A stretch of DNA of 57,346 bases from Armatimonadota bacterium (GCA_046292385.1 JBKBRF010000045.1:1-57346); one strand, 5' to 3'; positions 7,131 to 56,740 are shown, numbered from the stretch's first letter. Notes: generated from the sequence alone by a model not told the origin. Numbers and translations: made by a program.

Positions 7131-7807
7131 TGGAAGTCAAGTGGGACCGGAAGTATCGGCCGTGGCTCTGCGCCGCGGAGCCCGACGCCAAGCGCCACCT
7201 GGACTGCGTGCTCATCACCGCGTCCGGCCTGATGGTCGCCACGGATGCTCACTACCTGTCGGTCACGCCGGCCCTCCTTCGCCAGCCGGCAGACGGGTTT
7301 GCCGGCGCCCTCGTGCCGGCCGCCTGGCTGGCGTGGGTGGCAGAGCGCCAGGAGCTGGCCTTCCCTGATGATGCGGGCTTCACCATCACGCTCCATCCGG
7401 GAATGGCCTCTGCGGAGACCGGCTCCGGCACGAGTACCACGGAGCTGCATCCGGCGGAGCGGTACGTCACCTGGGACCTCGTCGCCAGTAACACGCTGCA
7501 GAAGGCGATGGCGATCCTCGCCAGTGAGCGGACGGCAGAGCCGCCCCAGATCCGGCTGATACCGTCCTGCCTGGCGACGCTCTGCGAGGCGCTCGGGCTG
7601 ACTGACGCATTCGGCTTCGCACGCGAGACCCCGCTGATCATCGCGGGCGAGAACCGGCTGGAGCCATTGCTGGTCCTCACGTCCGAGCCGCTCGCCTTCG
7701 GGGTGCTGATGCCCGCCGGCGCCTCCTACACCGATCAGGATCCCTCTCTCCAGCGGAGCCTCTATGCCGTGCGGCATCACCGCGAACCCGCCCAGGAGGT
7801 GGCTTGA
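7130..7807 (+). CDS. Divergent beta-clamp (DnaN)-like protein
   Basis: MVATDAHYL resembles the DnaN VATDGHRL motif; C-terminal GVLMP. Confidence 0.45.
   Translation: MEVKWDRKYRPWLCAAEPDAKRHLDCVLITASGLMVATDAHYLSVTPALLRQPADGFAGALVPAAWLAWVAERQELAFPDDAGFTITLHPGMASAETGSGTSTTELHPAERYVTWDLVASNTLQKAMAILASERTAEPPQIRLIPSCLATLCEALGLTDAFGFARETPLIIAGENRLEPLLVLTSEPLAFGVLMPAGASYTDQDPSLQRSLYAVRHHREPAQEVA
7762..7779. promoter_or_regulatory. Palindrome copy A (degenerate), CTATGCCGTGCGGCATCA
   Basis: 13/14 match to the core ATGCCGCGCGGCAT; inside a CDS. Confidence 0.5.
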
Positions 7808-8280
7808 TGGAACGCCCATCCGTTGCCTACCGCCGGAAGGACAGCGCTTCCTTCGTAGAGTGCCCTGAGGGCAGCGCTGATTCAGCTCGACGCCTCTTCC
7901 AGACCGTTCACGAGCGAGCGATGGACCTGGGAGACATCGCCGAGATCGTCCTGCGCGAAGGCGATCACGTCGTCGATCGCTGGGTGGACGACTCCGAAAT
8001 CGTGCAGACCGTGCACTACGTGAACCTCACCGTCTGTGGACGCGATGTGCACAGTTGGCACGAAAGCTACGAGGCCGTACGAGACGCCCTCTGCACCCAC
8101 CTCGGGCAGTTCATCCACGATGACGACCAAGCGGAAGAGGGAATCCTCTGCGACGGGATTGAGCGGCTTGGCCGGGTGCTGCGGGATGTAGTCCGGGACC
8201 GCGAGACTGGCAGCTATTGCGGGCCGGTTCACCTTCAGGACTTCTGGCAGCACCGCGGTGGCGATGAGGAGCCCTCGTAA
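7807..8280 (+). CDS. Hypothetical protein
   Basis: AGGAGG RBS; TGATG coupling. Confidence 0.6.
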   Translation: MERPSVAYRRKDSASFVECPEGSADSARRLFQTVHERAMDLGDIAEIVLREGDHVVDRWVDDSEIVQTVHYVNLTVCGRDVHSWHESYEAVRDALCTHLGQFIHDDDQAEEGILCDGIERLGRVLRDVVRDRETGSYCGPVHLQDFWQHRGGDEEPS

Positions 8281-8549
8281 TGGTCTACCTCATCCACTTC
8301 GAACGGGCAGTCGGCACTCCGCGGAAGCGCGCGCAGCACTACCTCGGGTACGCCGAGGACCTTCCGTCCCGGCTGGACACCCACCGCCAGGGACGCGGCG
8401 CCCGACTGCTGCAGGTCGTCCAGCTGCTCGGCATCCGCTGGCGGGTGGTCCGCACCTGGGACGGCGATCGCGCCAGAGAGCGCCAGCTCAAGCGCTGGAA
8501 GAAGTCCCGCACGCTCTGCCCGGTCTGCCGGGGGAAGGAGGCGTTCTGA
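8280..8549 (+). CDS. Small GIY-YIG nuclease-like protein
   Basis: VYLIHF...HYLGY...RLDTH...G...ERQLK; C-terminal CPVC. Confidence 0.7.
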   Translation: MVYLIHFERAVGTPRKRAQHYLGYAEDLPSRLDTHRQGRGARLLQVVQLLGIRWRVVRTWDGDRARERQLKRWKKSRTLCPVCRGKEAF

Positions 8550-8791
8550 TGTTCACGGCCGAGCCCATTCCCAGCCCCGAGGAGCTGCGCGTCCTGGCTG
8601 ACGTGGGGCAGAGCGATCCGCAGGCGGAGCCCCCCTGCCTGGCGCCTATGCCGGACGGCATCGAGCCGTGGTGGTGGAACCCCGTGCTGGACTGGATGGT
8701 GCGGCACGCGGAGGCGCTCTGGCTGGCCTTCTGGTGGCTGCTGATCCTCTCCTGGCCGGCCTGGCTTCTCTGGGTCGCGCTGACGAAGTGA
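8549..8791 (+). CDS. Small Trp-rich membrane protein
   Basis: AGGAGG RBS; C-terminal TM helix. Confidence 0.6.
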   Translation: MFTAEPIPSPEELRVLADVGQSDPQAEPPCLAPMPDGIEPWWWNPVLDWMVRHAEALWLAFWWLLILSWPAWLLWVALTK

Positions 8792-8794
8792 GCT

Positions 8795-9160
8795 GACAGC
8801 CGGGAGAGACCGGCACTTGAGGCGTGCGGGCCTGGCGAGACACCAGGCCGTGAAGGTTCGAGGGCGATCCAGCCGCCCCCACGTTACGCGAGGAGCTGTT
8901 TCGAACCACTGATGGCTCCCGAGCCGGGTCGCACCCGGCCACGCCTCCTGCCCATCGCGCAAGGCGGTGGGGGTCCGCAAGGACAGGGCTCTCCGGTGCC
9001 CGGCGGCTATCGAAACCGGAGAACGTCCGCCGTCGCTTCTGGCGACGGGTTGCCCACCGCACAGGCGGTGGTTGCGTCCAGCGGGGCGCAGGGCCCGCCG
9101 GGGCCTGGCCTGGACAGCCACCCGGCACCGGGGGTGTCGTTCCACGGGGGCGGCACCCCC
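8795..9160 (+). ncRNA. Candidate structured RNA / leader upstream of bet
   Basis: Intergenic region with at least 8 stems, including a nested four-way junction at 8964-9060. Confidence 0.4.
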
Positions 9161-9180
9161 ATCCGAACTGCGAGGTGAAG

Positions 9181-10374
9181 ATGATGACCGAGACAGCCGT
9201 TCACGAGACGCCGCGGTTCACACTGACCGAAGAGGATAAGGCCCTCCTCGCCAAGACGATGCTGGCGGAAGGGACGCCGGACGAGCGGGAGATCTTCTAC
9301 AAGACCGTCGAGCGCACCGGTCTCGATCCCTTCGCGCGGCAGATCTACGCGATCTGGCGCCGGGAAGGCGGCCGCGACGAGCGCAAGAAGATGACGATCC
9401 AGGTCTCGATCGACGGCCTGCGGCTCATCGCGCAGCGATCCGGCGAGTACGAGGGCCAGATCGGTCCCTTCTGGTGCGGATCGGACGGGGCCTGGAAAGA
9501 CGTGTGGCTGGAGAAGATCCCGCCCGCTGCCGCAAAGGTTGGCGTATGGCGGAAGGACTTCCGGGAGCCGCTCTGGTCTGTCGCCAACTGGGAGAGCTAC
9601 GTCCAGAAGAAGCGTGACGGCGGCTACCTCGGCCTCTGGGGCAAGATGGGCGCCCTGATGCTGGGAAAGGTGGCGGAAGCGCTCTGCCTTCGGCGCGGAT
9701 TCCCGCAGGAGACGTCCGGGCTCTACACGGCAGAGGAGATGGACCAGGCGGATCACCCGGAGAGCAGCGGCGACCGCGCCGCGACGCAGGCTTCCCGCTC
9801 CACCTCGCCGGTCACCACGCCGGCCCCGGAGAGCAGCGGCGATCGCGCCGCCACTCAGGCCGCCCCGGCACCGCAGCCGGAGCCCTCCGGACCCCCGGCC
9901 GAGAAGGCGCCCGCGGACCTGGCCGAGTACCGGAAGGCGTTCTTCGCCAACTTCAGCAATCACTTCGGCCAGGTGGATGACCACACCCGGCACGCCATCC
10001 TCTCCGACCTGCTGGGAAAGCAGATCACCACGCAGCAGGGCTGGACGATCAACCACTACGCGTCCGCGCTGCGCCGGCTCGAAGAGCACATGGGCCACTG
10101 CGACGTCTGCGCGGGGTGTCCGATCGCGGAGAAGCACCGGAAGGCCACACCCGCCCCCGCCCAGCAGGCGGCACCACAGAACGACACGCCTGCCGGGTCC
10201 CCCACCCCCGCGCCGCAGCCCGCCCCGCCGGCCGAGGGCGGCCCGATGGTCTGCACCGGCGACGGCTGCGAGAAGGCGCTCACCAAGAGCCAGCACAGCA
10301 TGAGCGTCCGCGCCTTTGGCCAGCCGCTCTGCCCCGCCTGCCAGAAGGGCGCCACCCGCCGCGCCGCCGCTTGA
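9181..10374 (+). CDS. bet: Phage recombination protein Bet (Red-beta/RecT-family annealase) with C-terminal Zn finger
   Basis: [58 protein letters not shown]. Confidence 0.9.
9757..9860 (+). repeat. Two imperfect ~35-bp repeats encoding [12 protein letters not shown]
   Basis: Copies start at 9757 and 9826. Confidence 0.8.
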
Positions 10375-10384
10375 GGAGATCCCC

Positions 10385-11125
10385 ATGTCCGTGACTGAGA
10401 CCCCCGTGATCGACAACCCGTTCGAGGACGCGCAGCCGTCGGATGAGACTCCCACCCAGCTCACCGAGGCCGAGGCCCGCGCGATGGGCTTCAGCGAGGA
10501 GGACCTCGCGATTCTGGTCGAGGCCGGCGTGCTGGTGGAAGAGCACCGCCGCGAAGCCTGGGAGCCGAGCACCCTCGCTGACGTCGCCTGGCTCATCCGC
10601 AAGCGCAAGCTGATCCGCTTCGAGATCTCCGAGCGCCAGCGCTGGCACGAGGAGGCCGTCGCGCGGCTCCAGCGGGCGGAGCAGGCGCTGAGCCGGTGGG
10701 ACGAGATCTGCGCGCAGATCACCCGGGAGAACCTGCCGCGGAAGAAGGACGGCTCCTACGCCGCGAAGAGCATCCCGATCGAGGGCGCGCTGGTAAAGCT
10801 CACCGCTCAGAAGGGCGGACCGAAGGTGGTCGATGAGCAGGCGGTCCTCTCCTACATCCTCTCCGGCGGCGAATGCTGCGTCGCCCTGGCCGAGGCGGTG
10901 AAGGTCTCCGTCACCGAGACGTTCGAGGGCCCGGCCGCGCTGGAGGTGCTGCAGGATCCCGCCTACGCGGAACTCGCGAAGCCGAAGGTGCTCCACCAGC
11001 CGGTGCGGGACTTCGTGGCCGGTTTACCGCCGCTCACGAAGGAGGAGACGGGGGAGGTGCTCGGCCCGGCTTCGATCCCCGGCGTGGAGATCGTGGAGCC
11101 GTCGGAGCGGTGGTCATGGGAGTGA
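10385..11125 (+). CDS. Mu Gam-like host-nuclease inhibitor
   Basis: VAWLIRK followed by a coiled coil and KSIPIEGALVKL...VVDE; adjacent to bet. Confidence 0.55.
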   Translation: MSVTETPVIDNPFEDAQPSDETPTQLTEAEARAMGFSEEDLAILVEAGVLVEEHRREAWEPSTLADVAWLIRKRKLIRFEISERQRWHEEAVARLQRAEQALSRWDEICAQITRENLPRKKDGSYAAKSIPIEGALVKLTAQKGGPKVVDEQAVLSYILSGGECCVALAEAVKVSVTETFEGPAALEVLQDPAYAELAKPKVLHQPVRDFVAGLPPLTKEETGEVLGPASIPGVEIVEPSERWSWE

Positions 11126-11179
11126 CTGGACGAGGCGGCCGCGGCGGCGCCGGCGGCACCCGTAGACTCCGCACCAGCT

Positions 11180-11518
11180 TTGACCTGGTGTCACTGGTGC
11201 CTGCGTCCCTGTCCCGGCCTGGATCCGGACGGCTTCTGCCTGGATGCCGACCGCGAGGAGCTGGCGCGCTACTCCCTGTGGCTGCGGACCGGCGTGATGC
11301 ACCCCAAGCAGGAGCGCTGGCACGCCACGGACGCGGGCGCCTGGCGGTGGCGCGTCTACCTCGACGGCGAGCCGGTGCGCCTTGCCTGGTCTGCCGACGT
11401 GGCGGCCGGCGAAGTGCAGGTCACCCGCACCGGCAAGAACGGCGTCATCCCGAAGGACATGGCGATCGAAGAGCTGCTCGAAACCCGCACCGGCCGGGTG
11501 GAGATTCGCGCGCGGTGA
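11180..11518 (+). CDS. Hypothetical protein
   Basis: ORF track; CHWC motif; start uncertain. Confidence 0.5.
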   Translation: MTWCHWCLRPCPGLDPDGFCLDADREELARYSLWLRTGVMHPKQERWHATDAGAWRWRVYLDGEPVRLAWSADVAAGEVQVTRTGKNGVIPKDMAIEELLETRTGRVEIRAR

Positions 11519-11527
11519 GGCCCTGAC

Positions 11528-11971
11528 ATGCCCCGGATCATCAGCTTCGCACACACCACGGCCGCGCTTGTGAACGGCTTCAAGACGGTCACCCGCCGCC
11601 CCTGGAAGGACCACTATGCCCGCACGTTCCGGGCCGGCGAGGAGCTGCTCGCCTACGATCGGACTCCCCGCATCGGCGGCGTGCCGGTCGCGCGCATCCG
11701 CCTCACCGCCGACCCGGTGAAGGAGCCCTGGGCCGACGCTCCGGACGCCGACTGGGAAGGCGAAGGCTTCCATTACCTGTTCGGCCGAGACGTGCGGGAA
11801 TTCCATCTCTACGGCTCCGCCCGCGAGGCGTGGGACCTGTGCAAGTCCGGCGACGCCGTGGAGTGGGTGGTCCGCTTCGAGCTGCTGGAGCTGCTGCCCG
11901 GCGCCGCCCCGTACCGCGATCCGCGCCCGCTCGACCAGATCCCCTTCGCGCGCCTGGAGGATGCCGCGTGA
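11528..11971 (+). CDS. ASCH/PUA-like domain protein
   Basis: ISF...GFKTVTRR...EGF...WVVRF. Confidence 0.65.
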   Translation: MPRIISFAHTTAALVNGFKTVTRRPWKDHYARTFRAGEELLAYDRTPRIGGVPVARIRLTADPVKEPWADAPDADWEGEGFHYLFGRDVREFHLYGSAREAWDLCKSGDAVEWVVRFELLELLPGAAPYRDPRPLDQIPFARLEDAA

Positions 11972-14631
11972 ATCGGCTCCTCGAAGCAGCATTGAGCTAC
12001 GCGCAGCGCGGCTGGCTGGTCTTCCCGCTCCACACTCCGGAGGGTGACGGCTGCTCGTGCGAGAATCCCGAGTGCGATCGGATCGGCAAGCACCCGCGGA
12101 CGAAGCACGGGTTGAAGGACGCGACCACCGATCCGCGGATCCTCAAGCGCTGGTGGGAGCTGCAGTGGCCGGACGCCAACATCGGCATCGTCACCGGCAG
12201 CGGCTCCGGCCTGGTGGTGATCGACGTCGATCCAGACCATGGCGGCAGCGACAGCTGGTACGAGGCGCAGCGCGAGCACCAGGGCTGCAGTGTCGACACC
12301 GTCGAGGCGATCACCGGCAGCGGCGGCACCCACGTCCTGTTCCGCCACCCCGGCGGGATCCGGATCGGCAACCGCCAGGAGTGGCTGCCGGGTGTCGACG
12401 TCCGCGGGGACGGCGGCTACATCGTCGCTGCGCCGTCGCTCCACGCCAGCGGAGCCTGCTACGAATGGGAGGCGTCCTGCCATCCGGACGACGTCTCGCC
12501 GGCGCCGCTCCCGGAGTGGCTGCTGGACCAGCTCGTCAACCGCCGGAAGACGGCCGAGGCGACCGGCCCCAAGGGCGTGGACCAGGGCCAGCTCGCGCTG
12601 GTCGACCCGGTCCTGGCCGGGTGCGCGTGGCTGCGTCACTGCGTCGACGATGCCGCCAGCCTGAAGGAGGCGCCCTGGCACGCGCTGGCGACGATCTGCG
12701 CCCAGCTCCAGGACGGACAGCGGCTCTACCACGAGTGGAGCAAGCCCTTCCCCCGTTACGACCAGGCAGAGACCCAGGAGAAGCTGGACCACGCGCGCCG
12801 CACCTCCCGCCCGCGCACCTGCTCCGCCATCCGCATGGAGTTGGACGGCGAGCCCTACTGCTCCGGCTGCCCCCACTGGGGCAAGATCCGCTCGCCGATC
12901 GCGCTCGGCCGGGGATTCATCGCGGAAGCGGATCTCCTGGCGCCGCCGCCGACGCAGCGGATCCAGGTCGGACTGCTGGAGGATGTCCCGCTGCCGGATA
13001 ACGTCGAGCGGCGCCGCCCCACCCCGCGCGCCAGTACCGCGGTGCCGCCGCCGGCCACCCGGAACGGTCACCCGAATGGGCACGCCAACGGCAACGGCCG
13101 CACCCAGGCGCACGCTCCCGCGGCCGCGCCGGCACCGGATGAAGCGGAGTGGGGCGCGCCGCCGCTCACCGAGGAGGCCCTGGGGCACGCGGCCGCCGAC
13201 GCCAACGAAGGTGAGGGCCGCGGCGGTCCGTCGGAGCTGTCTCTCGCTCGCGGCTGGGCCGGCGAGGTGCGGGAGCAGTGGGCCTTCTTCGAGGGCGCCC
13301 AGTGGTATCGCTACGCTCGCGGCTGCTGGCGCTACTCCAGCGCGGAGCGGGCAGAGGCGGAGCTGCAGCACTGGCTGGAGCGGGCCCGGCTCACCGGCAC
13401 GAAGGTCTCCGTCACGGCGCGGAAGGTGAGCAACATCCTCCGCCTGGCGCGGAACCACCTGGGCCCGCACGAACTGACGGAGCTCAACTCCCGGCCGACC
13501 TGGATCCCGCTCGCGAACGGCGTGTACGACACGGAGACGAACGAGATCCGGCCGCACTCGCCGAAGCACTGGCTCACCCACCAGCTCCCGTTCGCCTACG
13601 ATCCCGGCGCCGACTGCCCCCGCTGGAAGGAGTTCCTCCTGCAGGTGATGCTGCGCTCCGACGGCACTCCCTGCCAGGAGTGGATCGACGCGCTCCAGGA
13701 ATGGTTCGGGTACTGCCTCGTCCCGGACAACCGCTACCAGATGTCGATGGTCTGGGTCGGCGAGGGCCAGAACGGCAAAGGGGTCGCGACCCGTGTGCTT
13801 CAGGAGCTGGTCGGCTCGGCGCAGTGCTGCTCGGTGCCGATCGAGCAGCTCCACGATCCCTACTACCGCGCGAGTCTCCACGGCAAGCTGGTCGGCTTCG
13901 TGAACGAGCCGGACCCGCGGGCGATGCTCAAGAACGGCTCGTACTTCAAGGCGCTCACCGGCAAGGACGCGATCGACGGCCGCCGCCCCACCGAGAAGGT
14001 GTTCTTCTTCGTGCCGACGGTCCGCCTGGTCATCTCCTGTAACGCGCTCCTCACCACCCGGGATCTGAGCCACGGCTACTTCCGGCGGCTGGTGATCATC
14101 GAGTGGCGCTACCAGGTGCCGGACGGCCAGCAGGATACGAGCCTCGACGATCGCCTGAGCGAGGAGCTGCCCGGGATCTTCAACTGGGCCCTCGAAGGCC
14201 TGCGCCGGTTCCGCGAGCGAGGCTCCCGCCTGGACCGGCTGCCGGAGAGCGAAGCGCTCCTGAAGGACTACAAGCTCTCCGAGGACAGCTTCGCCCAGTT
14301 CCTGGATGACGAGTGCGAGCGGGGCCCGGAGCTCAAGTGGGTCACGGGCGACCTCTACGCCGCGTACGTCGCCTACTGCCAGGAGAACGGGTTCCCTCGC
14401 GCTCAGAGCAGCACCTCCGTCGGCACCCGCCTCACGAAGATGGGCTGCGAGAAGGGCAACACCGTGATCGATGGGGTGACGGTCCGGTACCGGCGCGGGA
14501 TCGCGCTGCGCGAGAACAGCCCCTACGCTAACGTGCGCGCGGGTCAGGGCCGGCGCCGCCGGTCCAAGCGGGAGTTCGATCCCGGCGAGCCGCCGCCCGA
14601 GCTACCGGCCCAGCGGGAGATCGTCTACTGA
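11968..14631 (+). CDS. Bifunctional primase-polymerase fused to a D5/P4-type SF3 helicase
   Basis: GWLVFPL, GKHP, ANIGIVTG, VIDVD, GGTH, DVRGDGGYIVAAPS; Walker A GEGQNGKG; RRLVIIEW. Confidence 0.92.
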   Translation: MNRLLEAALSYAQRGWLVFPLHTPEGDGCSCENPECDRIGKHPRTKHGLKDATTDPRILKRWWELQWPDANIGIVTGSGSGLVVIDVDPDHGGSDSWYEAQREHQGCSVDTVEAITGSGGTHVLFRHPGGIRIGNRQEWLPGVDVRGDGGYIVAAPSLHASGACYEWEASCHPDDVSPAPLPEWLLDQLVNRRKTAEATGPKGVDQGQLALVDPVLAGCAWLRHCVDDAASLKEAPWHALATICAQLQDGQRLYHEWSKPFPRYDQAETQEKLDHARRTSRPRTCSAIRMELDGEPYCSGCPHWGKIRSPIALGRGFIAEADLLAPPPTQRIQVGLLEDVPLPDNVERRRPTPRASTAVPPPATRNGHPNGHANGNGRTQAHAPAAAPAPDEAEWGAPPLTEEALGHAAADANEGEGRGGPSELSLARGWAGEVREQWAFFEGAQWYRYARGCWRYSSAERAEAELQHWLERARLTGTKVSVTARKVSNILRLARNHLGPHELTELNSRPTWIPLANGVYDTETNEIRPHSPKHWLTHQLPFAYDPGADCPRWKEFLLQVMLRSDGTPCQEWIDALQEWFGYCLVPDNRYQMSMVWVGEGQNGKGVATRVLQELVGSAQCCSVPIEQLHDPYYRASLHGKLVGFVNEPDPRAMLKNGSYFKALTGKDAIDGRRPTEKVFFFVPTVRLVISCNALLTTRDLSHGYFRRLVIIEWRYQVPDGQQDTSLDDRLSEELPGIFNWALEGLRRFRERGSRLDRLPESEALLKDYKLSEDSFAQFLDDECERGPELKWVTGDLYAAYVAYCQENGFPRAQSSTSVGTRLTKMGCEKGNTVIDGVTVRYRRGIALRENSPYANVRAGQGRRRRSKREFDPGEPPPELPAQREIVY

Positions 14632-14650
14632 TGCCGCGGTGTACATACAG

Positions 14651-14880
14651 GTCCCTTGCGGGTTCCATACGGGTTAGGACGGGCAATCCGTGCCTGGTAC
14701 GTGCGGGTTGTGCGGGTTTGCAGGTTCTCCTTAGAGGGCTGCGGTACTCAACCCTCTCTCCTCGTACCTTCCCATGTCATGGAACTAGCAAGTACTTGCA
14801 AACCCGCAAGTACGGAGTTCAAAGCGTGGCTGGATTGCGGTCGATTAGTACATACGGGTTGATCTAAACCCGCAAGGGAC
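14651..14880. repeat. Iteron-rich candidate replication origin
   Basis: T(G/A)CGGGTT octamers in direct and inverted orientation; 14-bp perfect inverted repeat 14651-14664/14867-14880; palindrome GCAAGTACTTGC at 14788-14799. Confidence 0.65.
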
Positions 14881-14959
14881 TCGCACGTACATCCGCATGG
14901 GACGGGTGGACTCGTCGCGCTTGTCTTTGTTGTTCGAAGTTCTTGGAGATCCAGAGCGA

Positions 14960-44881: not shown

Positions 44882-44895
44882 CCTCCACCGTGGCA

Positions 44896-46292: not shown

Positions 46293-46295
46293 CCC

Positions 46296-47657: not shown

Positions 47658-47743
47658 CGCTCCAGGTCGCTCCTACCTAACGTGCGCAGGAGACCAGGGG
47701 GAAACGGACAACGTTTTAGGTGAAGATGGAAGGGGGATCCGAA

Positions 47744-48204: not shown

Positions 48205-48233
48205 GCGCCGTCCAGGTAGCCGAGCGGGTCGAG

Positions 48234-48410
48234 CTACGTCCCCTCGCGCTTGCCCAGCCGCTCGATCGCCCACTCGGCTACCGGTCGGTTGGCGGTGATG
48301 ACCTGTACGCCGAGCCAGGTAAGCTCCAACATCCAGGGCTCACCTCGGGCACCATGCTTGAGCGCGAGCGGCACGAGGCGCCGCCGGGCTGTGAAGTTGA
48401 TGAGGATCAT
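48234..48410 (-). CDS. Small hypothetical protein
   Basis: ATGA-coupled to the minor head gene. Confidence 0.45.
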   Translation of the reverse strand: MILINFTARRRLVPLALKHGARGEPWMLELTWLGVQVITANRPVAEWAIERLGKREGT

Positions 48411-49390: not shown

Positions 49391-49683
49391 ACGGCCTCGT
49401 TCAGGCGCTGCGCCAACCAGACCACGCCCTCTTTGGTGAGCCCTGCCGGACCCCGCAGGCGCCGGCGATGGAACTGCTTCACCGTTACAGGGACGTCCGG
49501 CTCCAGGGGGAAAGTGAGCTTGACCGGCGGGGTCGTCACGACGACCTTGTAGTCGTGCTTCTCCTCTCCGGGCTCGCACGGTAGGACCTCCCCGTCGTCC
49601 GCCTGGAAGCAGAAGTAGTCAACGAGCTTGTCGCACTCGGGGAGCCCGAGAGGATACCCATAGATCCGGGTGGTGACGCTCAT
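49387..49683 (-). CDS. Hypothetical protein
   Basis: ATGA-coupled on both sides. Confidence 0.6.
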   Translation of the reverse strand: MSVTTRIYGYPLGLPECDKLVDYFCFQADDGEVLPCEPGEEKHDYKVVVTTPPVKLTFPLEPDVPVTVKQFHRRRLRGPAGLTKEGVVWLAQRLNEAV

Positions 49684-51290
49684 CGGATGGCTTTCTCCCT
49701 CGCGGAGCGGAGTCGCTCCAACAGGCTCTTCTTGCCGGGCTCCGCGGGCGGCGGCTCGGTGGTGGGCGGCGCGTCCGCGTCCGCCGGCTTCGGCTCGGTG
49801 GGCTCTGGCGGGATCAGCGGCACCGCCCCCGTGGCGGAGAGGATCCGCGGCGGCTGGTCCTTCGCGAACATCAGGGTGATGCCCTGGACCCGCACCAGGC
49901 GGATGTCACCGCCCTCGACCCGCGCGTCGGCGCCGTGCTCCGCCTCCAGCAGGTCGTTGATCGTCTCCAGGCCCAGCTCCAGCCGATCCCTACGCACCGT
50001 GTTCTTCTGCGTTTCGGTGCGCAGGTCCGCCTGGCTGAAGCGCAGCTCATATGCCTCGATGGCGAGCTCGTCCCGGAAGAACTGGTTGAACCCGTCGGCG
50101 ATCAGGTCGGCGAGCGGCTGGACCTCCTCTTCCAGGAGGGCCTTGTCCTGCTGCTCCATGTTCGCGCGGTTCACCGAGTCGGTGAAGCCGAGCTTCCCGC
50201 CCGGGACGTTGGCCACGGAGAGCATCAGCTCCCGGCGGTACCGGGGCGCGTGCTCCGGCTCGATGTCGATCGGCGTGGAGCCCATCGCCTTGTAGTCGGC
50301 GCCGCCCTCGTTGTCGACCCCGATCACGTAGGTGCGGCCGGCGTGCTCCGGGCCCTTGTGCCGGGTGTCGAGCTCCAGCTGGATCCGCTCCAGCTCCCCC
50401 TTCTTCGGGTTCTTGACGGTCATCAGGCCGTCCGGCGTGGCCCGGTTGTGGAGGTAGCTGTGCTTGTAGACCTGGATCATCTGGTCCACGTCATCGACGA
50501 AGCGCAGCGACTCGAACGGCGCCAGGGCGTGGGCGCCACCGAGCGGGTTCGGCCCCTTGATCCAGAGCACGTCCTTCTCGGCAAACCAGGCGCGCTCCCC
50601 CGTGGCGATGATCTGCACGAACGCCCGCTCCGGATCGCTGAAGGCGCCGTGGCGATCGACGATCGGGTTGACCGTGCCCTGGAGCACCTTGAACCCGATC
50701 GGCATCTGTTTCCGGAGCGCGATCGCGTCGCCGGCCGCCTTCACCGCCTGGTCGCCGAGCGCCTTGATCCGGGCCTCCGGGACCGCCCCCTTACACCGGG
50801 CGTTCTCCTGCACCAGCATCTGCCGGAAGAGGCTCTTGCTCACCGTGGGGAGCTGCTGGTCCAGCGCCTCGCCGTCCGCGTAGATCCACTCGAGGTAGTT
50901 CTCGCCGACCACCTTCAAACGGACCACCATCTCCTGCAGGGTGTTGGAGAAGGGCTCGCGACCGTTCGGATGGTCGAAGAGGTCTTCGAGGTAGGCGCGC
51001 TGCTGGGGCACCTCGGCGAAACCGTCCCGGAGCGAGATCGTCCACTGGCAGCCGGCGACGATCTTCGCGACCTTGTCCACGGCGCCGCGGAGGAGCGGCT
51101 GCAGGGCGTAGCGCTCCAGGAGCTCGTCCACGGGCGACTCGCTCTCCTGGCCCTCGTGAGCGTGCTCCTGGTAGCGGTCCATGAGTCCCCGCTTGATCTC
51201 CGCCACCTGTGTCCGGACCTGCCGCTCCGTCGCCCTTTTGATCGCGGGCCCGAAGGCGCGCTCCACGAATCCCTGAACCCAGCGTGCCAA
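49680..51290 (-). CDS. Portal protein (HK97-like)
   Basis: HPN...GENY, NRATPDG, NVP...LG...NRANMEQQ, TIND. Confidence 0.9.
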   Translation of the reverse strand: MARWVQGFVERAFGPAIKRATERQVRTQVAEIKRGLMDRYQEHAHEGQESESPVDELLERYALQPLLRGAVDKVAKIVAGCQWTISLRDGFAEVPQQRAYLEDLFDHPNGREPFSNTLQEMVVRLKVVGENYLEWIYADGEALDQQLPTVSKSLFRQMLVQENARCKGAVPEARIKALGDQAVKAAGDAIALRKQMPIGFKVLQGTVNPIVDRHGAFSDPERAFVQIIATGERAWFAEKDVLWIKGPNPLGGAHALAPFESLRFVDDVDQMIQVYKHSYLHNRATPDGLMTVKNPKKGELERIQLELDTRHKGPEHAGRTYVIGVDNEGGADYKAMGSTPIDIEPEHAPRYRRELMLSVANVPGGKLGFTDSVNRANMEQQDKALLEEEVQPLADLIADGFNQFFRDELAIEAYELRFSQADLRTETQKNTVRRDRLELGLETINDLLEAEHGADARVEGGDIRLVRVQGITLMFAKDQPPRILSATGAVPLIPPEPTEPKPADADAPPTTEPPPAEPGKKSLLERLRSAREKAIR

Positions 51291-51294
51291 CTCC

Positions 51295-52752
51295 CTACCC
51301 TCCCCTCATCTGCCGGCGGCGGAGCATGTTCCGGTAGCCGGTCGCCTGCTCCAGGATCGCCTTCGCTTCTTCGGTCGGCTCCGGCGCGCGGGACACCAGG
51401 CTCGTGCCGCCGCCGGCGAGCCCGTCCACGTAGGCCACCGCGTAGCGCATCGCATCGAGGCCGTGATCGTCACTGGGTGCCGGCAGCTCTTTGACCGGCT
51501 TGCCGTCTTTGTCTTTCTTCTTGGGCCAGGCGTAGCCATCGATCTCCTGCACCGTGGAGATCGGCCGCTTGGCGGCCAGGAGCTGCTCGTCTTGCTCCAC
51601 GAGACCGTCACGCAGGATGTAGAGCCGCGGCCGCCCGTCGCCGGCGGTCTGGAGCCGCTGCTGCACCGCCTGGATGCCCACGCTGATGCTCTTGTAGGCC
51701 GCGATCGTCTCGATGCCCTCGGCGTGCAGGGTGGCCCGGTCCTCGGCGTCGTGATCCGCGACCGTCGCCTCGATCTCCTCGCCCTCGGAGAGCGCCAGGA
51801 TCTGCTGCGCGTGATCCCGCACCAGCCGATGCGTGTGGTAGAGCTCGCGGTAGCGATACATCCGCTCATCCGGATCGATGGCCCACCACTGGCACACGAA
51901 GGCATTGACGTAGCCGAAGTCGATTGAGCGGATCTTCCGCCAGCTCTCCCACCCCGCCGGCATCCGGTCGATGATGTGCACCGCCGGCTCCCATCCGTCG
52001 TAGACCAGGCCCTCGGCGGAGACCCAGCGCCCCTTCCGGAGGCGCTCATACCGCGCCCCGGTGAGGCGGTCCAGGGTGGCGATGTAGCGCTTCCCCTCGG
52101 GCGTCCAGCACTTCCGGGCGTGATCGTAGAGGACCGGGTTCTCGTGGTGGAGCGTGTCCAGCATGCGGCAGACCCCGGCATCCGCCCGCAGCTTCAGCCA
52201 GTGGTTCGGGGTCCAGGGATTCGTATCCGCGATCAGCTGCTGGTAAGGCATCACACCGTTCCGGAGGCGGGTCGAGGCGCTCTCCCAGTCGTCTTCCGTA
52301 AGCTCGATCGCTTCCTGGACGTAGATGATGTCGTATTCCGTCGACATCACCTTGGTCGGGTTGTCCATCCCCCCGACGATTAACTCGCTCCCGTTGGGGT
52401 AGCGGTAGGCCTGTCGCATCCGCCGCTGGATCGACCTGGCCAAGATCGGGTGCCCTTCCGGGACCACCTTCGCCTCGAACGTCACCAGCCCAGACTCCGT
52501 CAGCGAGGCGCGGGTCTTCCGGAGGATGAGGCCGCGCATCCCGGGGTAGCGCTCCGCCAGCCAGTGGAGCTTCTCCAGGATGCCGCGGCTCTTCCCCGTC
52601 CCCGCCGGCCCGGACAGCACCAGCTCCGGATCCCGGCTGAACCACATCGTGCGGGCGGTCCCGAACGGCTGGTACGGCCGGTTCTCCGGCCTGATGTCAC
52701 TCTTCGTCGCCCTCGGATGGCGGCTCCGGCTCTGGCTCTGCGTCGTCGGCAT
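51295..52752 (-). CDS. terL: Terminase large subunit
   Basis: GPAGTGKS Walker A, YVQEA, DTNP, IDFG nuclease motif, DHGLDAMRY. Confidence 0.93.
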   Translation of the reverse strand: MPTTQSQSRSRHPRATKSDIRPENRPYQPFGTARTMWFSRDPELVLSGPAGTGKSRGILEKLHWLAERYPGMRGLILRKTRASLTESGLVTFEAKVVPEGHPILARSIQRRMRQAYRYPNGSELIVGGMDNPTKVMSTEYDIIYVQEAIELTEDDWESASTRLRNGVMPYQQLIADTNPWTPNHWLKLRADAGVCRMLDTLHHENPVLYDHARKCWTPEGKRYIATLDRLTGARYERLRKGRWVSAEGLVYDGWEPAVHIIDRMPAGWESWRKIRSIDFGYVNAFVCQWWAIDPDERMYRYRELYHTHRLVRDHAQQILALSEGEEIEATVADHDAEDRATLHAEGIETIAAYKSISVGIQAVQQRLQTAGDGRPRLYILRDGLVEQDEQLLAAKRPISTVQEIDGYAWPKKKDKDGKPVKELPAPSDDHGLDAMRYAVAYVDGLAGGGTSLVSRAPEPTEEAKAILEQATGYRNMLRRRQMRGG

Positions 52753-53287
52753 CCGGGTCAAATCCCACGTAGACCTTGAAGGGCTGGCCGGCCGAGGTGA
52801 TGTCGGTCTTCTTCACCGCGTTCAGGCCCCAGATCTGGCGGACCGCTGCCTTCGCCGCGAGCGCCTGCGCCAGCAGGGCCGGGTTGCCACTTTGGCCCCG
52901 CGTCTCCCGGACGTACTCCACGAGGTATTCGTCGCCGGGCTCTTCCGGCTCCAGTTCCTCGTCCTCGTCGGAGTCCCGCTCCTCGCGCTCAATCCGCTTC
53001 TTGACGATCCGGACGCATTCCGCCGGCTGACAGCTCCGGTCCCACTGCTCCAGCGCCTGCTCATACACGTAGTCAAGCTGGGCGGTCTGTTCGGCCTTGA
53101 TCTGGGCCGCGGTCTTTTCAAACTCTTTGGCGAGGCGGGTGTTGATCCGCTGGAGCATCCGGCAGACGGTGCTGGTGTCGACGTCCAGCTCCGCCGCGAT
53201 CCGGGGCTGGCTCCAGCCCTTCACCCGGAGGGCCCAGGCGCGTCGCTCGAGCTCCTCGCGCTGTTGAGCGTTCAGGGGCTTAGCCAT
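52697..53287 (-). CDS. terS: Terminase small subunit (HTH)
   Basis: GWSQPRIAAELDVDTSTV; KTDITSAGQP C-terminus; immediately upstream of terL. Confidence 0.75.
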   Translation of the reverse strand: MAKPLNAQQREELERRAWALRVKGWSQPRIAAELDVDTSTVCRMLQRINTRLAKEFEKTAAQIKAEQTAQLDYVYEQALEQWDRSCQPAECVRIVKKRIEREERDSDEDEELEPEEPGDEYLVEYVRETRGQSGNPALLAQALAAKAAVRQIWGLNAVKKTDITSAGQPFKVYVGFDPDADDAEPEPEPPSEGDEE

Positions 53288-53765
53288 CGGCGGTCGCCAG
53301 TTTTGCACTCATGCGTTGCACTCGCGGATGGTCCGGCCAGGCCGCCTTCAGCTTCTCCACGGCCGACCGACGGCGCCGGCGCACGGTCCGATCGGAGCAC
53401 TCGAATCGCTGGGCGATCTCCGTCTCCGAGTAGCCCTCGGCCAGGAGGACCAGGCACTCCCGCTCCTCGCGGATGAGGCAGGCCTCACCCATGATCTGCT
53501 CGAGCTCGGCAGCGTCTTCCACGCGGCGAATGGAGTCGGCCGGATCCCGCGCGATCTCCTCGCAGAGGATCGTCTCCCGGCTGCGCCGGCGGCGCTGCTG
53601 CTGGGGCCCCAGAATGGGACGGTCCCGGTCCGGCGGCTGCTGGACCAGGATGATGCTGGAGATCGTCTCCAGGGCCTCGTCTACGCTGAGGCGGCCGCAG
53701 GAGACCCGTTCGAGGCACTGCTTGAGCGAGAGCTGGGCTCGCTCCGGGCGACGGAGTGTCATCAC
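53280..53765 (-). CDS. Sigma-70 region 4-like HTH regulator
   Basis: EERECLVLLAEGYSETEIAQRFECSDRTVRRR...A.EKL; AGGAG RBS. Confidence 0.7.
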   Translation of the reverse strand: MMTLRRPERAQLSLKQCLERVSCGRLSVDEALETISSIILVQQPPDRDRPILGPQQQRRRRSRETILCEEIARDPADSIRRVEDAAELEQIMGEACLIREERECLVLLAEGYSETEIAQRFECSDRTVRRRRRSAVEKLKAAWPDHPRVQRMSAKLATADG

Positions 53766-53784
53766 TTCCTAACTCCTTCGTTCA

Positions 53785-55068
53785 TTAGCTCCAGGTGCCC
53801 GTCCCGTCGGCGGCGAGGTTCGAGCAGCGGACGATCTTGTTGGCGCCGGTGGCGTCATCGCGGTAGAGGAACTCCCACACGCCATCGGCGCGCTGGAGCA
53901 GGCGGCCGAGCACCGGGGCGGCCGTGACGCCGATGTCCTGCGCGGCGCTCCAGGTCCAGGCCCCGGCCTCGGAGAGCTGCCCCACGCGGACGCTCCACTT
54001 CTTGCTGGAGGCGCTGTAAACCATCGCGACCGGCATCGGCCGGCCCGGGAGGCTGGTCCCCCACTCGTAGGTCGCGAGGTCGTAGCCGGTGCCGATCGTC
54101 GTCGCCACGGTCCAGGTCCTTCCGTTGTTGCGGCTCACGGAGAGGCGCAGCTCGTCATCCTGCTGGAAGAGGACGCGCTGAATCCCATCCGCGAGGATGG
54201 AGAGCTTCGGGCGGTGGCAGTCGGGCCCACCGTGGATGGAGATCGTCTCCTCGATGGTGTCGGTCTCCGCGTCGGTGTAGCGGTCGAGCACCACGGCGCC
54301 GGAGGTGTTGGTCCGGACCACGAAGAGCTGTCCCGTGAGCGGGTGGCGCGCGAAGTCCATCGACTCCCAGGCGGCACCCTCGACCAACCGGAAGTTGTCG
54401 ATCGACGCCACCATCCGCTCGCAGGGCTGCGCCGTCGCGCCGCCGATCGAGTAGGCGCCGGAGGTCTCGACCCGGTAAGCCACGAAGCCGGCGACGCCGC
54501 GGCCAGGCCCGAAGATGCTGGCCATCCCGCTACTGCCGCCGGCGCTGGCGGTCCAGCCGGCAGCGTCCTGCGTAAGAGACGGGATTTCGCCGAAGTCAGG
54601 CTCCAGGGTGCACACCCCGCCCACGAGTAGCTGCTCCTCGGAGGCGGCGACTGGTCCGGTGGTAACCGACGCGTTGCCCGGCCCCTTTACGTCCTTGTCG
54701 CCGTCCGAAACTCGCTCGACTTGAGGCTCGGTCAGGTCGGAATCTTCGAGCTTGAGCAGGTAGCCGTGGTACCAGGTCGGGATCGAACCCACGTAAGGGG
54801 AGAAGTAGTCCCCGATCGCAATGTCCGCCGTCGTCTTCCCGAACAGAGTCAGGACGTCGCCATGCCCGATGGGCACGTCCGAGAGGAAGGTGTTACCGGC
54901 CGAGTCGGCTGAGGATGCTGGGAGGTTGACCGACCCCGTGGCCACGGCGAACACCCACACCAGGTTGGTGCCGGCCGGAATTGCCTGACCATAGACCATC
55001 ACCGGGGCAAGATCGCCTTCCGGCATGTACCGGTTGATGGTTTGAAGAACCGTGACGCTGAGTGCCAA
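53785..55068 (-). CDS. Beta-rich protein with Asp-box-like motif (possible virion/adhesion protein)
   Basis: GGAGG RBS and TTG start; SADSAGNTF, VSRNNGRTW. Confidence 0.55.
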   Translation of the reverse strand: MALSVTVLQTINRYMPEGDLAPVMVYGQAIPAGTNLVWVFAVATGSVNLPASSADSAGNTFLSDVPIGHGDVLTLFGKTTADIAIGDYFSPYVGSIPTWYHGYLLKLEDSDLTEPQVERVSDGDKDVKGPGNASVTTGPVAASEEQLLVGGVCTLEPDFGEIPSLTQDAAGWTASAGGSSGMASIFGPGRGVAGFVAYRVETSGAYSIGGATAQPCERMVASIDNFRLVEGAAWESMDFARHPLTGQLFVVRTNTSGAVVLDRYTDAETDTIEETISIHGGPDCHRPKLSILADGIQRVLFQQDDELRLSVSRNNGRTWTVATTIGTGYDLATYEWGTSLPGRPMPVAMVYSASSKKWSVRVGQLSEAGAWTWSAAQDIGVTAAPVLGRLLQRADGVWEFLYRDDATGANKIVRCSNLAADGTGTWS

Positions 55069-55140
55069 GGACTACCTCCGAGAGGGCTCTCTCAGCTACT
55101 AGGCAGGTAGCGGCCCGCGACGGGGCCACGGTTTTCGCGG

Positions 55141-56103
55141 CTACAGGCCGACCTGCCCAGCGGCATTCTCCCGGAAGAGGCTCCCGTCCCGGATGTAGCG
55201 GCGGACCATCTGCACCGACTTGTGTCCGGTCTGGGCCATGATGGCGCGCTCGCTCGCCCCCGCCGCCGCGGCGCTGGTCGCCAGGCCGGCCCGGAGCGAG
55301 TGTCCGGAGTAGAGGTCCGGATCTAGCCCGGCGGCGGCCGCCGCGCGCTTGACCACCAGGGCTACCGCGCGATCGGAGAGGCGGCCGGGCTGGAGCTGCC
55401 CGTGTCGGGTCACGCCGCGAAAGAGCGGTCCGCTCTCGATCCCGGCCATTCGCATCCAGGCCTGCAGCGAGCGGACCGGACAGGTGGGAGCCGCGGATCC
55501 GTGAGGGATCCCCTTCTTGGACCCCTGCCCTTCCTGGTCCGTCTTTGAGCGCCGGAGGTGGAGCACCAAGCCGGAGCGGGTGACGGTCACATCCTCTCGA
55601 TCGAGGGAGACCAGCTCGGAGCGGCGGAAAGCGCCGGCGAAGCCGACCAGCAGCAGGGCGCGGTCCCGGACGCCGGCGAGGTCGGAGCCAAGTGTCTCCA
55701 CCATCCGCCGGAGGTCCTCGGTGAGGGTGGGCGCCTTCCCGGCCTGCGCGGTTCCATGGACGCGCCGGATCCCGGCCCAGACGGCCCGGACTATCGGGTG
55801 CTTCGTGGGAGACGGGTGGCCGGCGAGTTGGTGGGCCTGGGAGATCGCACAGAGGCGGCGCTGGAGGGTGGAGACCTTCGCCGTCTCGATCCGCTCGGTC
55901 AGGTAGAGCGCGACCGTCTCCGGGTCCGCGGGAAGGGGCGAGCAGCTCCGGGCGTCGCACCAGGCGCACCAGTCCCGCCAGTCTGAGCGGTAGGCCCGGA
56001 CGGTGTTCTCGGCGCGGGCATGGGCCGCGTAATCGCGGGCCTGAGAGGCCGTCTCTCGGACCGCCGCGAGGGCCTCGTTTCGAGGAACAATTCCGGTCTC
56101 CAA
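55141..56103 (-). CDS. Cre-like tyrosine recombinase
   Basis: NTVRAY.SDW, RDRALLLVGFAGAFRRSEL, SKTDQ, HSLRAG, QTGH, RRY. Confidence 0.92.
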   Translation of the reverse strand: METGIVPRNEALAAVRETASQARDYAAHARAENTVRAYRSDWRDWCAWCDARSCSPLPADPETVALYLTERIETAKVSTLQRRLCAISQAHQLAGHPSPTKHPIVRAVWAGIRRVHGTAQAGKAPTLTEDLRRMVETLGSDLAGVRDRALLLVGFAGAFRRSELVSLDREDVTVTRSGLVLHLRRSKTDQEGQGSKKGIPHGSAAPTCPVRSLQAWMRMAGIESGPLFRGVTRHGQLQPGRLSDRAVALVVKRAAAAAGLDPDLYSGHSLRAGLATSAAAAGASERAIMAQTGHKSVQMVRRYIRDGSLFRENAAGQVGL

Positions 56104-56167
56104 CTGCGCCTTCCGCCTCCTACCCAGTAGGCACGGAGGGAGGGGCGCTCGGCCACGAAAGCTAGCT

Positions 56168-56190
56168 TCCGATAAGGTTCAATTATCGGA
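56168..56190. promoter_or_regulatory. lox/dif-like crossover site candidate, TCCGATAA-N7-TTATCGGA
   Basis: Perfect 8-bp arms around an asymmetric 7-bp spacer, about 65 bp upstream of the recombinase gene. Confidence 0.65.
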
Positions 56191-56203
56191 GCCCAGAAAC
56201 GGG

Positions 56204-56626
56204 CTAGGAGACGGGGGTCTGGACCCGGCGGAGCTTCTCCCGGGCGGCCGCGGACCGGCGCTTCACCGTCCGCTCCGGCATGCCGAGAAAGGCTGCCGCT
56301 TCCGCTACTCCGAGCTGCGCGGAGAGGGTGAGCGACTGGGCTTCTTCGCGGGTGAGGTGGGCCGCGGAAATCCTCTCTTCCACCTCGGCCCGATCCGTGA
56401 GACTGCCGATGATCTCACGGGAGATCAGCTCGTCGGAGAGGGCGCGCTCCCGCCGGCGCCGGTGCCGGAGCTGGTGCTCCGAGAGGACCGGGTAGGGGTC
56501 GCCCTCAACGACACCCACCTGGGTGAGCAGCGTGGTCCCGAGCGCGTCCAGCACTGCCGGCAGCTCCACGCCGGGACGCAGCAGCGGACGCAGCGCTGCG
56601 TAGAGTTGCCTCCCCATATCCGCCAT
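56204..56626 (-). CDS. Sigma-70 region 4-like HTH regulator (paralogue of 53280-53765)
   Basis: LTREEAQSL...GVAEAAAFLGMPERTVKRR...AREKL; GGGAGG RBS. Confidence 0.7.
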   Translation of the reverse strand: MADMGRQLYAALRPLLRPGVELPAVLDALGTTLLTQVGVVEGDPYPVLSEHQLRHRRRRERALSDELISREIIGSLTDRAEVEERISAAHLTREEAQSLTLSAQLGVAEAAAFLGMPERTVKRRSAAAREKLRRVQTPVS

Positions 56627-56666
56627 ACGCCCTCCCGTCGCGGGGACATAGGAATCCCCTATGCAG

Positions 56667-56696
56667 ATTATAGGGGGAGTGAGCGCTTTCCTGCAA
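56667..56696 (-). promoter_or_regulatory. Promoter for the right-end minus-strand genes
   Basis: TTGCAG, 18-bp spacer, perfect TATAAT on the minus strand. Confidence 0.55.
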
Positions 56697-56722
56697 TCGG
56701 GGTAGGCGCTTGCCCGCTTGGA

Positions 56723-56740
56723 TTATGCCGCGCGGCATAA
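56723..56740. promoter_or_regulatory. Palindrome copy E, perfect TTATGCCGCGCGGCATAA
   Basis: Intergenic; 22 bp (56721-56742) identical to 18758-18779. Confidence 0.7.

Follow-up and report, generated by a model that had tools for sequence, protein, structure and literature searches.

What reads a palindrome that recurs at intervals around the genome of a temperate phage? We asked this of a 57,346-nt stretch of DNA (hereafter the window), which is the whole of contig C45 in the 7.04-Mb, 91-contig genome of an uncultured hot-spring bacterium (Armatimonadota, GCA_046292385.1). Pfam, NCBIfam and PHROGs matches identify the element in the window as a temperate tailed phage. An earlier reading of this DNA, made from the sequence alone (the sequence-only reading), had picked out five dispersed palindromes as candidate sites for the phage's ParB protein. 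Our analysis points the same way: the palindromes are probably parS-type loading sites of the phage's own orphan ParB, a DNA clamp of CTPase fold and chromosomal/Noc type. We favor this explanation because the palindromes accompany ParB in a sibling phage, have parS-like geometry, and lie in or next to parB genes in metagenomes.

With up to three mismatches allowed, the 18-mer TTATGCCGCGCGGCATAA had exactly five matches in the window (copies 1 to 5, Table 1). The chance expectation, taken as the mean of 100 dinucleotide-preserving shuffles, was 0.03, and none of the 100 shuffles gave five. The 14-bp core is exact in four copies and 13/14 in the remaining one (at 7764), and the center is GCGC or GTGC in all five. 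The palindrome is even and spacer-less, a geometry typical of parS. Copy 1 is read as YAVRH, at codons 265–270 of a 279-aa open reading frame (ORF), with the AGGAGG of the next gene ∼14 nt further on. Copies 2 and 3 are both read as YAARH, the former near the start of parB, whose ATG at 18725 overlaps the stop of the gene before, and the latter at about codon 466 of a tail gene. Copy 4 lies 9 nt from the start of the adaptor gene, where the sequence is GGGGGAG-N2-GTG. Copy 5 ends 26 nt upstream of TTGCAG-18 nt-TATAAT, an element whose –35 matches the consensus at only 3/6 positions and which was not called by a consensus scan. Mismatch and core scans, together with re-reading of the contexts, bore out what the sequence-only reading had said of the position, match quality and surroundings of every copy. 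So did the terminal overlap for the 57,109-bp circle that it had proposed: the last 121 bases of the window are identical to positions 117–237, and the gaps between copies on this circle were computed, as before, at 10998, 11996, 11395, 14572 and 8148 bp. A sixth, weak copy at 8647 is of doubtful function.

The palindrome is confined to prophages. Across the 7.04-Mb genome, TTATGCCGCGCGGCATAA had 14 matches at up to three mismatches, of which five are in the window, seven in a prophage on contig C12, two in a third prophage on contig C37, and none elsewhere. The looser pattern ATGCC-N4-GGCAT gave 20 matches, 16 of them in the three prophages; the other four lack the T/A flanks. Seven composition-matched control palindromes had between 1 and 43 genome matches. 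We also searched 150 other genomes, six from the same family and the rest mostly from the same phylum, and found TTATGCC-N4-GGCATAA in just one, as a single copy. Equal frequency in the host chromosome, which the sequence-only reading had named as grounds for doubt, is thus not what we see, since all 14 matches fall within prophages.

The C12 prophage is the sibling phage. It occupies 59,758 bp between 55-bp direct attachment (att) repeats at a tRNA-Leu gene (C12:62194-122006) and encodes a tyrosine integrase. It has seven perfect copies of TTATGCCACGTGGCATAA, which shares the arms of the window palindrome and has ACGT rather than GCGC at the center in 7/7 cases, a symmetric change of one position per half-site. 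Matches in C12 were obtained for 11 of the 57 window proteins queried, namely ParB, PRTRC proteins F, B and ThiF, a J-domain protein, RecT, an HTH_3 protein (38% over 71 aa), a tail protein, a small ORF that is fused in frame upstream of ParB in C12, and two weak matches. The only DNA binders in this common set are ParB and the HTH_3 protein; the GerE, sigma-like and 17289-18728 helix-turn-helix (HTH) proteins of the window have no C12 counterparts. The head genes differ in family, with an HK97-type Phage_capsid and a fused portal-MuF in C12 versus SU10_MCP in the window. The two ParBs match at 54% over 210 aa; their recognition helices are identical (GGKSQSWISRT), and they differ just after the helix. 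In both phages one copy of the palindrome lies immediately 5′ of the ParB N domain, with the translation YAARH in the window and VMPRGII in C12. Because the reading frames differ, this copy is conserved as a DNA word and not as a peptide.

The concerted difference in the center between the phages (GCGC/GTGC in 5/5 versus ACGT in 7/7) suggests that the co-resident phages keep to separate ParB-site specificities, much as plasmids of different incompatibility groups do. The C12 variant has the same central CACGTG as the Pseudomonas parS consensus quoted in an excerpt of PMC12409273. On contig C38 the host encodes a ParB of its own in which the helix (GKSRSAVSNT) is canonical, and 1.2 kb upstream there is a canonical parS-like word; the phage pair is for that reason predicted to be orthogonal to the host pair. 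The host also encodes an orphan ParB-like protein of 453 aa (C28:8842-10200) with C-terminal Cys-rich, zinc-ribbon-like motifs and no adjacent ParA.

What kind of ParB does the phage encode? Matches to PF02195 (52.6 bits) and TIGR00180 (101.8 bits; cut-off 58.45) place it in the ParB/Spo0J family. Its nucleotide-pocket motifs GxxR and ENxxR are found as GERRLRA at residue 82 and ENEFR at residue 117, and its central HTH (PF17762, 52.5 bits) can be aligned to that of solved ParBs. The best solved relatives are Spo0J/ParB and Noc (7ol9, 7nfu, 6sdk, 1vz0, 6t1f), though the score for the Noc equivalog, TIGR04285, is 102 bits versus a cut-off of 315. The sequence-only reading had called the protein a PRTRC ParB. 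This label does not hold: TIGR03734, the PRTRC_parB equivalog, scores 53.5 bits versus a cut-off of 278.6 and aligns over only the N-terminal 155 of its 555 positions. The protein is instead a chromosomal/Noc-like ParB of the TIGR00180 type that occupies the ParB position of a genuine PRTRC cassette, in which proteins C, F, B and ThiF all score above their curated cut-offs (families TIGR03734-03742). PRTRC proteins A, D and E had no match in the 30 window and C12 ORFs scanned with NCBIfam, and unscanned small ORFs could hide them. The ParB gave no match to PF23552, the C-terminal dimerization domain, or to PF08535, the KorB domain; toward their C termini the two phage ParBs have a short conserved block in common.

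As the sequence-only reading had noted, there is no recognizable ParA. A six-frame search with PF13614 (AAA_31) had no match on C45, C12 or C37, and a Pfam scan of 63 window ORFs had none either. The window ParB also has no ParA-binding motif of the form [LFI]G[KR]G[LFI], so that neither an adjacent ParA nor an N-terminal ParA-binding motif, the marks of a ParABS system, was found. A palindromic site of ∼16 bp in or next to parB, another feature of the ParB/Spo0J family, is seen in the window, in C12 and in 15 metagenomic or viral loci. In searches for close relatives of this ParB, viral contigs gave one distant locus, and GTDB genomes gave 54, all distant chromosomal ParBs (29–44% identity, mostly Bacteroidota) without the motif. 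The sole true relative from the homologous-protein search was P0003 (52%, in Logan only), in which the palindrome core may be concealed in the stretch that codes for SDAARHH, a peptide preceding the N domain.

To follow the site outside this genome, we scanned metagenomes for exact TTATGCCRCGYGGCATAA. The scan returned 84 stretches; 80 loci from 79 contigs were examined together with three viral loci, and L269-L272, with 300-bp flanks, were left out. In 14 of the 79 metagenome contigs and in one of the three viral loci, a gene for a ParB homologue overlaps the site or lies directly beside it (tblastn, Pfam). At 11 of these linked loci (Table 1) the palindrome is inside parB, right after the HTH, and is read as MPRGI. 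These loci form four mutually distant groups (the L200 type, L212, L257 and L214/L188), and the palindrome within its own parB resembles a parS that the gene itself encodes. ParBs of the L200/L227 type are orphan and chromosomal, with a conserved neighborhood of metabolic genes, and the L200 and L227 proteins both match PF08535. At three further loci (L203, L235, L245) the site follows the stop of a parA-parB operon by 12–81 bp and the ParB has ParB_C, which reads as a classical parABS layout. At L205, two sites flank a degraded parB. In B. subtilis, too, one parS site lies inside the spo0J (parB) gene itself.

The recognition helix changes along with the site. Solved canonical ParBs have G-K-x-R-S-x-V-A-N. 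The window and C12 proteins, P0003 and the ParBs of 12 of the 15 site-linked loci have Q in place of the Arg and R in place of the Asn, and a 13th linked locus, L188, keeps the Q. Among 119 ParB homologues retrieved with the window ParB and classified by regular expression, 82 had R...N, 22 had Q...N, 12 were unclassified, and the single Q...R protein was P0003, the closest relative. Noc proteins have Q at the same helix position, and the Noc site starts with TAT, like the palindrome described here.

We then considered where the copies lie. Tested post hoc against random points on a circle, the five window sites were more evenly spaced than expected, both by minimum gap (P = 0.007) and by coefficient of variation (CV; P = 0.002). 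The same was true of the seven C12 sites (P = 0.0035 and 0.0056, respectively), whose gaps are 10246, 7671, 7226, 8002, 14626, 6784 and 5203 bp, the last across the att junction. In C12, five of the seven copies are fully outside ORFs supported by third-position GC content (P = 0.02, with a crude non-coding fraction of 0.275). Copies are found at module boundaries in both phages: ahead of late/packaging genes, near the ends and, in C12, following the capsid gene. The repressor/cro-type intergenic regions of both phages are free of copies; those closest by are at 7762 in the window and at 64128 in C12.

How might such an array work? Based on family knowledge (KorB, PMC11790492; BisD, PMC12409273) and on the motifs of the phage ParB, a dimer would recognize the 16–18-bp palindrome through its HTH, using Gln and Arg where canonical ParBs have Arg and Asn. 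With CTP bound in the GxxR/ENxxR pocket, the protein would close into a clamp and slide away from the site. Sites 8–15 kb apart could allow clamps to reach the entire 57-kb genome. The sequence-only reading had ParB loading at evenly spaced sites and coating the whole circle; the first part of this proposal gains indirect support from the linkage to ParB, and the even spacing, seen in two phages, is in keeping with coverage, which itself is something we infer. Its further suggestions, that ParB marks the circle as self or recruits the ubiquitin-like machinery, are speculative. Possible outcomes of the loading are silencing, activation, timing, compaction, and provision of a platform for PRTRC proteins. 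Most likely the array is a device for genome-wide control or organization rather than a partition centromere, because there is no ParA, because ParB has no ParA-binding motif, and because the phage integrates by a serine recombinase. By analogy with KorB on RK2 or BisD on ICEclc, it could act as a switch or timer for the transcription modules, or serve to compact the DNA. Since parB lies in the early replication operon, with its start overlapping the stop of the upstream gene, ParB would be expected to act after induction or infection and not in the quiescent prophage.

Several observations weigh against ParB as the reader of these sites, or against coverage as the purpose of the array. One concerns the C37 prophage (∼33500-66665), which runs off the contig end and has a Mu-like head and an NrS-1-type polymerase. 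It has three or four sites, namely CTATGCCGTCCGGCATAG, ATATGCCACGTGGCATAA, 14 nt upstream of the small-terminase start, TTATGCCGCGCGGCATAA, which precedes the tail tube gene, and one degenerate site, so that one perfect copy of each center type is present along with degenerate ones. Yet its visible part has no ParB_N match. Nor does C37 have any DNA-binding protein in common with C45 or C12; only two tail-fiber-region proteins are common to it and the window. Either these sites respond in trans to the neighbors' ParBs, or a ParB lies on the unassembled part, or they have another reader. Counting the weak copy at 8647 abolishes the spacing signal in C45 (P for minimum gap = 0.61). Because copies sit at module boundaries, even spacing could partly be a by-product of module size. 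Intergenic placement is significant only in C12; in the window it applies to 2/5 copies (P = 0.23). The ParB has no Pfam ParB_C domain, so clamp closure is assumed.

The wider surveys raise objections of their own. The metagenome loci were ascertained by the site itself, and the matches at loci other than the ParB-linked ones are coincidental (PCMT, DEAD-box helicase, FAD_binding_4) or unexplained. The link to ParB gains from a rough control in which 120 viral loci that have these arms, whatever the center, include none that encodes ParB, but these loci come from a different collection and 40/120 have only 300-bp flanks; all 120 were single, chance-like matches, and no arrays were seen among these viral contigs. 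One 28-kb provirus (G151) has a single site, inside its parB, and no proteins in common with the window. Finally, the sequence-only reading had proposed looking in other PRTRC elements for palindromes that co-vary with the ParB HTH, and this search came up empty. Among 48 other PRTRC-bearing viral loci, identified through ThiF and including 15 with a distant ParB, there were no comparable palindromes within 10 kb on either side, neither TATGCC-family sites nor any convincing repeated palindrome. Because these 48 loci show no such palindromes (0/48), the array is not a general PRTRC feature.

Other readers and other functions account for parts of these data. If the sites served as a centromere, ParB-site complexes would position or segregate an extrachromosomal form of the phage, whether excised, replicating or in a carrier state, through a host ParA or through host SMC loading, as in N15, where dispersed centromere sites (IR1-4) are known from the portion of PMC7205306 consulted. 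The chromosomal type of the ParB fits this idea. A non-integrated form of the phage does exist in the sample, since Logan contigs from the single run holding the phage include a circular-junction piece along with host-junction pieces; junction depths were inconsistent (31.5, 31.4 and 10.7 versus ∼47) and were not used as copy numbers. However, virion or replicating DNA would yield a circular junction just as well, integrases and att junctions occur in both phages, and neither an AAA_31 ParA on any of the three prophages nor a ParA-binding motif in ParB was found. A single site would suffice for segregation, and even spacing over the genome would be unneeded. We consider a centromere unlikely. 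We find it quite unlikely that the sites are operators of a different DNA-binding protein, be it a phage repressor at stoperator-like sites or a host factor such as the ParB-like protein encoded on C28. The strongest argument for such a binder is C37, whose sites in the absence of ParB would be explained by a host factor; in addition, most C12 sites are intergenic, both phages encode the HTH_3 protein, and an orphan ParB-like gene is at hand in the host. Yet the host chromosome outside prophages has no good copies, the C12 match to HTH_3 is a plus-strand gene rather than a positional repressor, the GerE, sigma-like and 17289-18728 HTH proteins are missing from C12, and both the metagenomic linkage and the helix covariation favor ParB. 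The repressor-operator version was rejected, as the immunity regions contain no copies.

Could the palindromes act in RNA, as hairpin terminators, attenuators, processing sites or modulators of translation near the ribosome-binding site (RBS)? Several copies abut an RBS, and the C12 copies at 64128, 82045 and 97273 lie within longer hairpins (z-scores of –3.3 to –5.9); of these, one immediately follows the major capsid gene. On the other hand, the five window copies fold no better than shuffled sequences (z-scores of –0.1 to –1.8), no U-tract terminators were called at the sites, and two to three copies are deep in coding sequence. All copies keep their sequence including the four loop bases, the center is itself palindromic, a property that a hairpin does not need, and the same word recurs in or beside parB genes elsewhere. 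A role in RNA is very improbable, and the hairpin or terminator was rejected as a general explanation on the basis of the folding comparison and the lack of called terminators. Hardly credible at all is that the palindromes are recombination sites for a second tyrosine recombinase, of XerC/D-like type. Such an extra enzyme is encoded by both phages (55141-56103 in the window; 83316-83990 in C12), with a palindrome 0.6–1.3 kb upstream. But the two recombinases are not detectably related (tblastn, 1e-3), the palindrome is perfect, with arms of only 7 bp and no asymmetric 6–8-bp spacer, and recombination among 5–7 dispersed sites would delete or invert parts of the genome. Logan contigs within 56500-57346, the sole stretch looked at, contain no junctions that join two palindromes.

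A bolder version of the ParB explanation, which we think rather unlikely, would make the array and its orphan ParB a whole-genome identity tag. The tag would be orthogonal for each co-resident phage (GCGC versus ACGT; compare immunity and incompatibility groups), and the DNA-bound clamp would be a platform for the PRTRC machinery, that is, the ubiquitin-like protein, E2, E1, protein F and the J-domain protein. ParB-less C37, with both site types, would then be eavesdropping on its neighbors' ParBs or be controlled by them.

ParB as the probable reader invites comparison with known systems. The sequence-only reading thought this one undescribed; however, dispersed sites for ParB-family proteins on mobile elements are already known (KorB-OB, N15 IR1-4, BisD-bisS). 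KorB of the IncP plasmid RK2 is described, in the parts of PMC11790492 consulted, as a ParB-family CTP clamp with a 16-bp palindromic operator, OB, located proximal or distal to promoters, and as exerting control at a distance by sliding. Dispersal of operator copies on a mobile element is common to both systems, but only one of the five window copies is near a promoter-like element (seen by eye). KorB differs in working with the ParA IncC and the clamp-locking KorA and in having the KorB domain, whereas the window ParB has no PF08535, ParA or identified partner; moreover, the window element is an integrating tailed phage whose sites are evenly spaced rather than promoter-linked. BisD of ICEclc, as presented in passages of PMC12409273, is an orphan ParB-like CTPase that uses parS-like palindromes inside genes, spreads over ∼50 kb, and coordinates expression across the element. 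Here the likeness is an orphan ParB of an integrating mobile element with palindromic sites in genes. As those passages have it, BisD relies on two sites 2 kb apart and very long sliding, versus 5–7 sites across the phage genomes, and it has a C-terminal activator domain and a partner, BisC, neither of which was identified in the window; the bisS sequence is unrelated.

N15, going by the portion of PMC7205306 consulted, is like the window phage a temperate phage with several separate, single palindromic sites for a ParB-family protein (SopB), not one cluster. According to the same portion, N15 is a linear plasmid prophage with SopA and its sites serve partition; the window phage integrates and has no ParA. 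Ravin and Lane reportedly described the four IR centromere sites of N15 in 1999. Noc with its sites (NBS) and chromosomal ParB-parS provide the best sequence relatives of the phage ParB and a 16-bp spacer-less palindrome, and Noc sites are dispersed over the replicon, but the phage half-site is unlike parS and the phage helix has Q and R versus R and N. The stoperators of cluster A mycobacteriophages are many dispersed copies of a protein-binding word, mostly in short intergenic gaps; they are asymmetric and oriented, and are bound by the immunity repressor. The window sites, in contrast, are palindromes that do not occur in the immunity region and that go together with ParB.

Prophages encode ∼1% of ParB homologues, and orphan ParBs on mobile elements are mostly without known function, according to the part of PMC12704722 consulted. 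A phage protein with a ParB fold and no DNA-binding domain is described, in an excerpt of a preprint, as activating a DNA dioxygenase, an example of the ParB fold as an enzyme partner (bioRxiv 10.1101/2025.08.14.668559). In titles, abstract openings and passages from the literature, we came across no account of arrays like this one in integrating phages. What is new is the site variant together with the helix signature that goes with it, a regular array in tailed phages that integrate, a presumably orthogonal pair within one cell, and the link to a PRTRC ubiquitin-like cassette that has a chromosomal-type ParB in place of its usual one. The locus thus offers a concrete ParB-site pair, consisting of a new parS variant and a matching Gln/Arg (versus Arg/Asn) helix signature, and a natural specificity pair (GCGC versus ACGT center) in two phages of one cell. 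The site layout looks designed for whole-genome coverage. If ParB does bind these sites, long-range control by ParB clamps, as for KorB on a plasmid and BisD on ICEclc, would extend to integrating tailed phages, and the unexplained PRTRC ubiquitin-like cassette would gain its first defined DNA target.

Table 1. Coordinates in the window of the palindromes and of associated phage features, with the metagenomic and viral loci of MPRGI type
Feature	Coordinates	Strand	Remarks
One full phage unit, 57,109 bp	117..57225		positions 1-116, host flank; 57226-57346 repeat 117-237
Palindrome copy 1, CTATGCCGTGCGGCATCA	7762..7779		3 mismatches; 3′ end of ORF 6968-7807, 5′ of RBS of gene 7804-8280
Palindrome copy 2, perfect	18760..18777		0 mismatches; inside parB, codons 12-18
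Palindrome copy 3, perfect 14-bp core	30756..30773		2 mismatches; within 703-aa tail gene 30059-32170 (-)
Palindrome copy 4, 17/18	42151..42168		1 mismatch; intergenic, between stop of PG_binding/CHAP hydrolase and RBS + GTG of head-tail adaptor gene
Palindrome copy 5, perfect	56723..56740		0 mismatches; intergenic; center ∼72 nt upstream of likely transcription start of long minus-strand operon
Weak sixth copy, CTATGCCGGACGGCATCG	8647..8664		both arms intact; 2 center mismatches, center non-palindromic
Promoter-like element TTGCAG-18 nt-TATAAT	56667..56696	-	precedes sigma-region-4-like gene 56204-56626; by eye
Orphan ParB, 446 aa	18725..20065	+	ParB_N and HTH_ParB domains; no Pfam ParB_C
PRTRC system protein C (ubiquitin-like)	20058..20246	+	78.1 bits vs cut-off 45.95
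PRTRC system protein F (alpha-hel2)	20253..21470	+	59.6 bits vs cut-off 58.4
PRTRC system protein B (Prok-E2_D)	21467..22207	+	179.2 bits vs cut-off 131.45
PRTRC ThiF-family E1-like protein	22204..23025	+	316.4 bits vs cut-off 144.75
Large serine recombinase	142-1737	-	left end, beside host junction
Loci with palindrome read as MPRGI			L198, L200, L212, L214, L216, L217, L227, L241, L257, L268; viral L188

The remainder of the phage genome is organized in two main blocks. An early block on the plus strand encodes RecT, a primase-polymerase/D5 protein, a helicase, ParB, PRTRC proteins C, F, B and ThiF, the J-domain protein, a DUF3850/ASCH protein and an RNase T-like exonuclease. A long block on the minus strand, running from 57.2 to 26.4 kb, opens with the sigma-region-4-like gene, the XerC/D-like recombinase and a GerE-type HTH protein, and continues with terminase, portal, MuF, protease, capsid, PG_binding/CHAP hydrolase, adaptor, tube, tape-measure and tail genes. 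The two small sigma-region-4/GerE-like proteins at the head of this late operon are encoded at 53280-53765 (-) and 56204-56626 (-), and the XerC/D-like tyrosine recombinase (55141-56103, -) is 67% identical to the product of a host gene on contig C10. Near the integrase, genes for DUF3037, a HipA_2-like kinase and HTH_3 lie in a row (2973-5287, -); they may form a kinase-type toxin-antitoxin or abortive-infection module beside the repressor. The host flank (1-116) is also found at the ends of contigs C48 and C54, which suggests that occupied and empty attachment sites are both in the sample. No RNA sequencing runs containing the phage are listed; one DNA run, possibly the source sample, is available as contigs.

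Two neighbors of parB deserve mention. The gene before it encodes a 479-aa protein (17289-18728, +) with no family match, an HTH-like segment and a long coiled coil, and its stop overlaps the parB start (ATGA); this protein, which has no C12 counterpart, could be a partner of ParB. Downstream of the PRTRC genes lies the J-domain protein (23054-23923, +; phrog_9210), which has an HPD motif and is the best-conserved protein between the C45 and C12 phages (70–89%). The gene for the DUF3850/ASCH protein (23920-24915, +) follows directly. Phrog_15982 matches both ParB and this DUF3850/ASCH protein. Fusions of ParB to DUF3850 are reported in phages in the part of PMC12704722 consulted, and so a split form of such a fusion may exist here.

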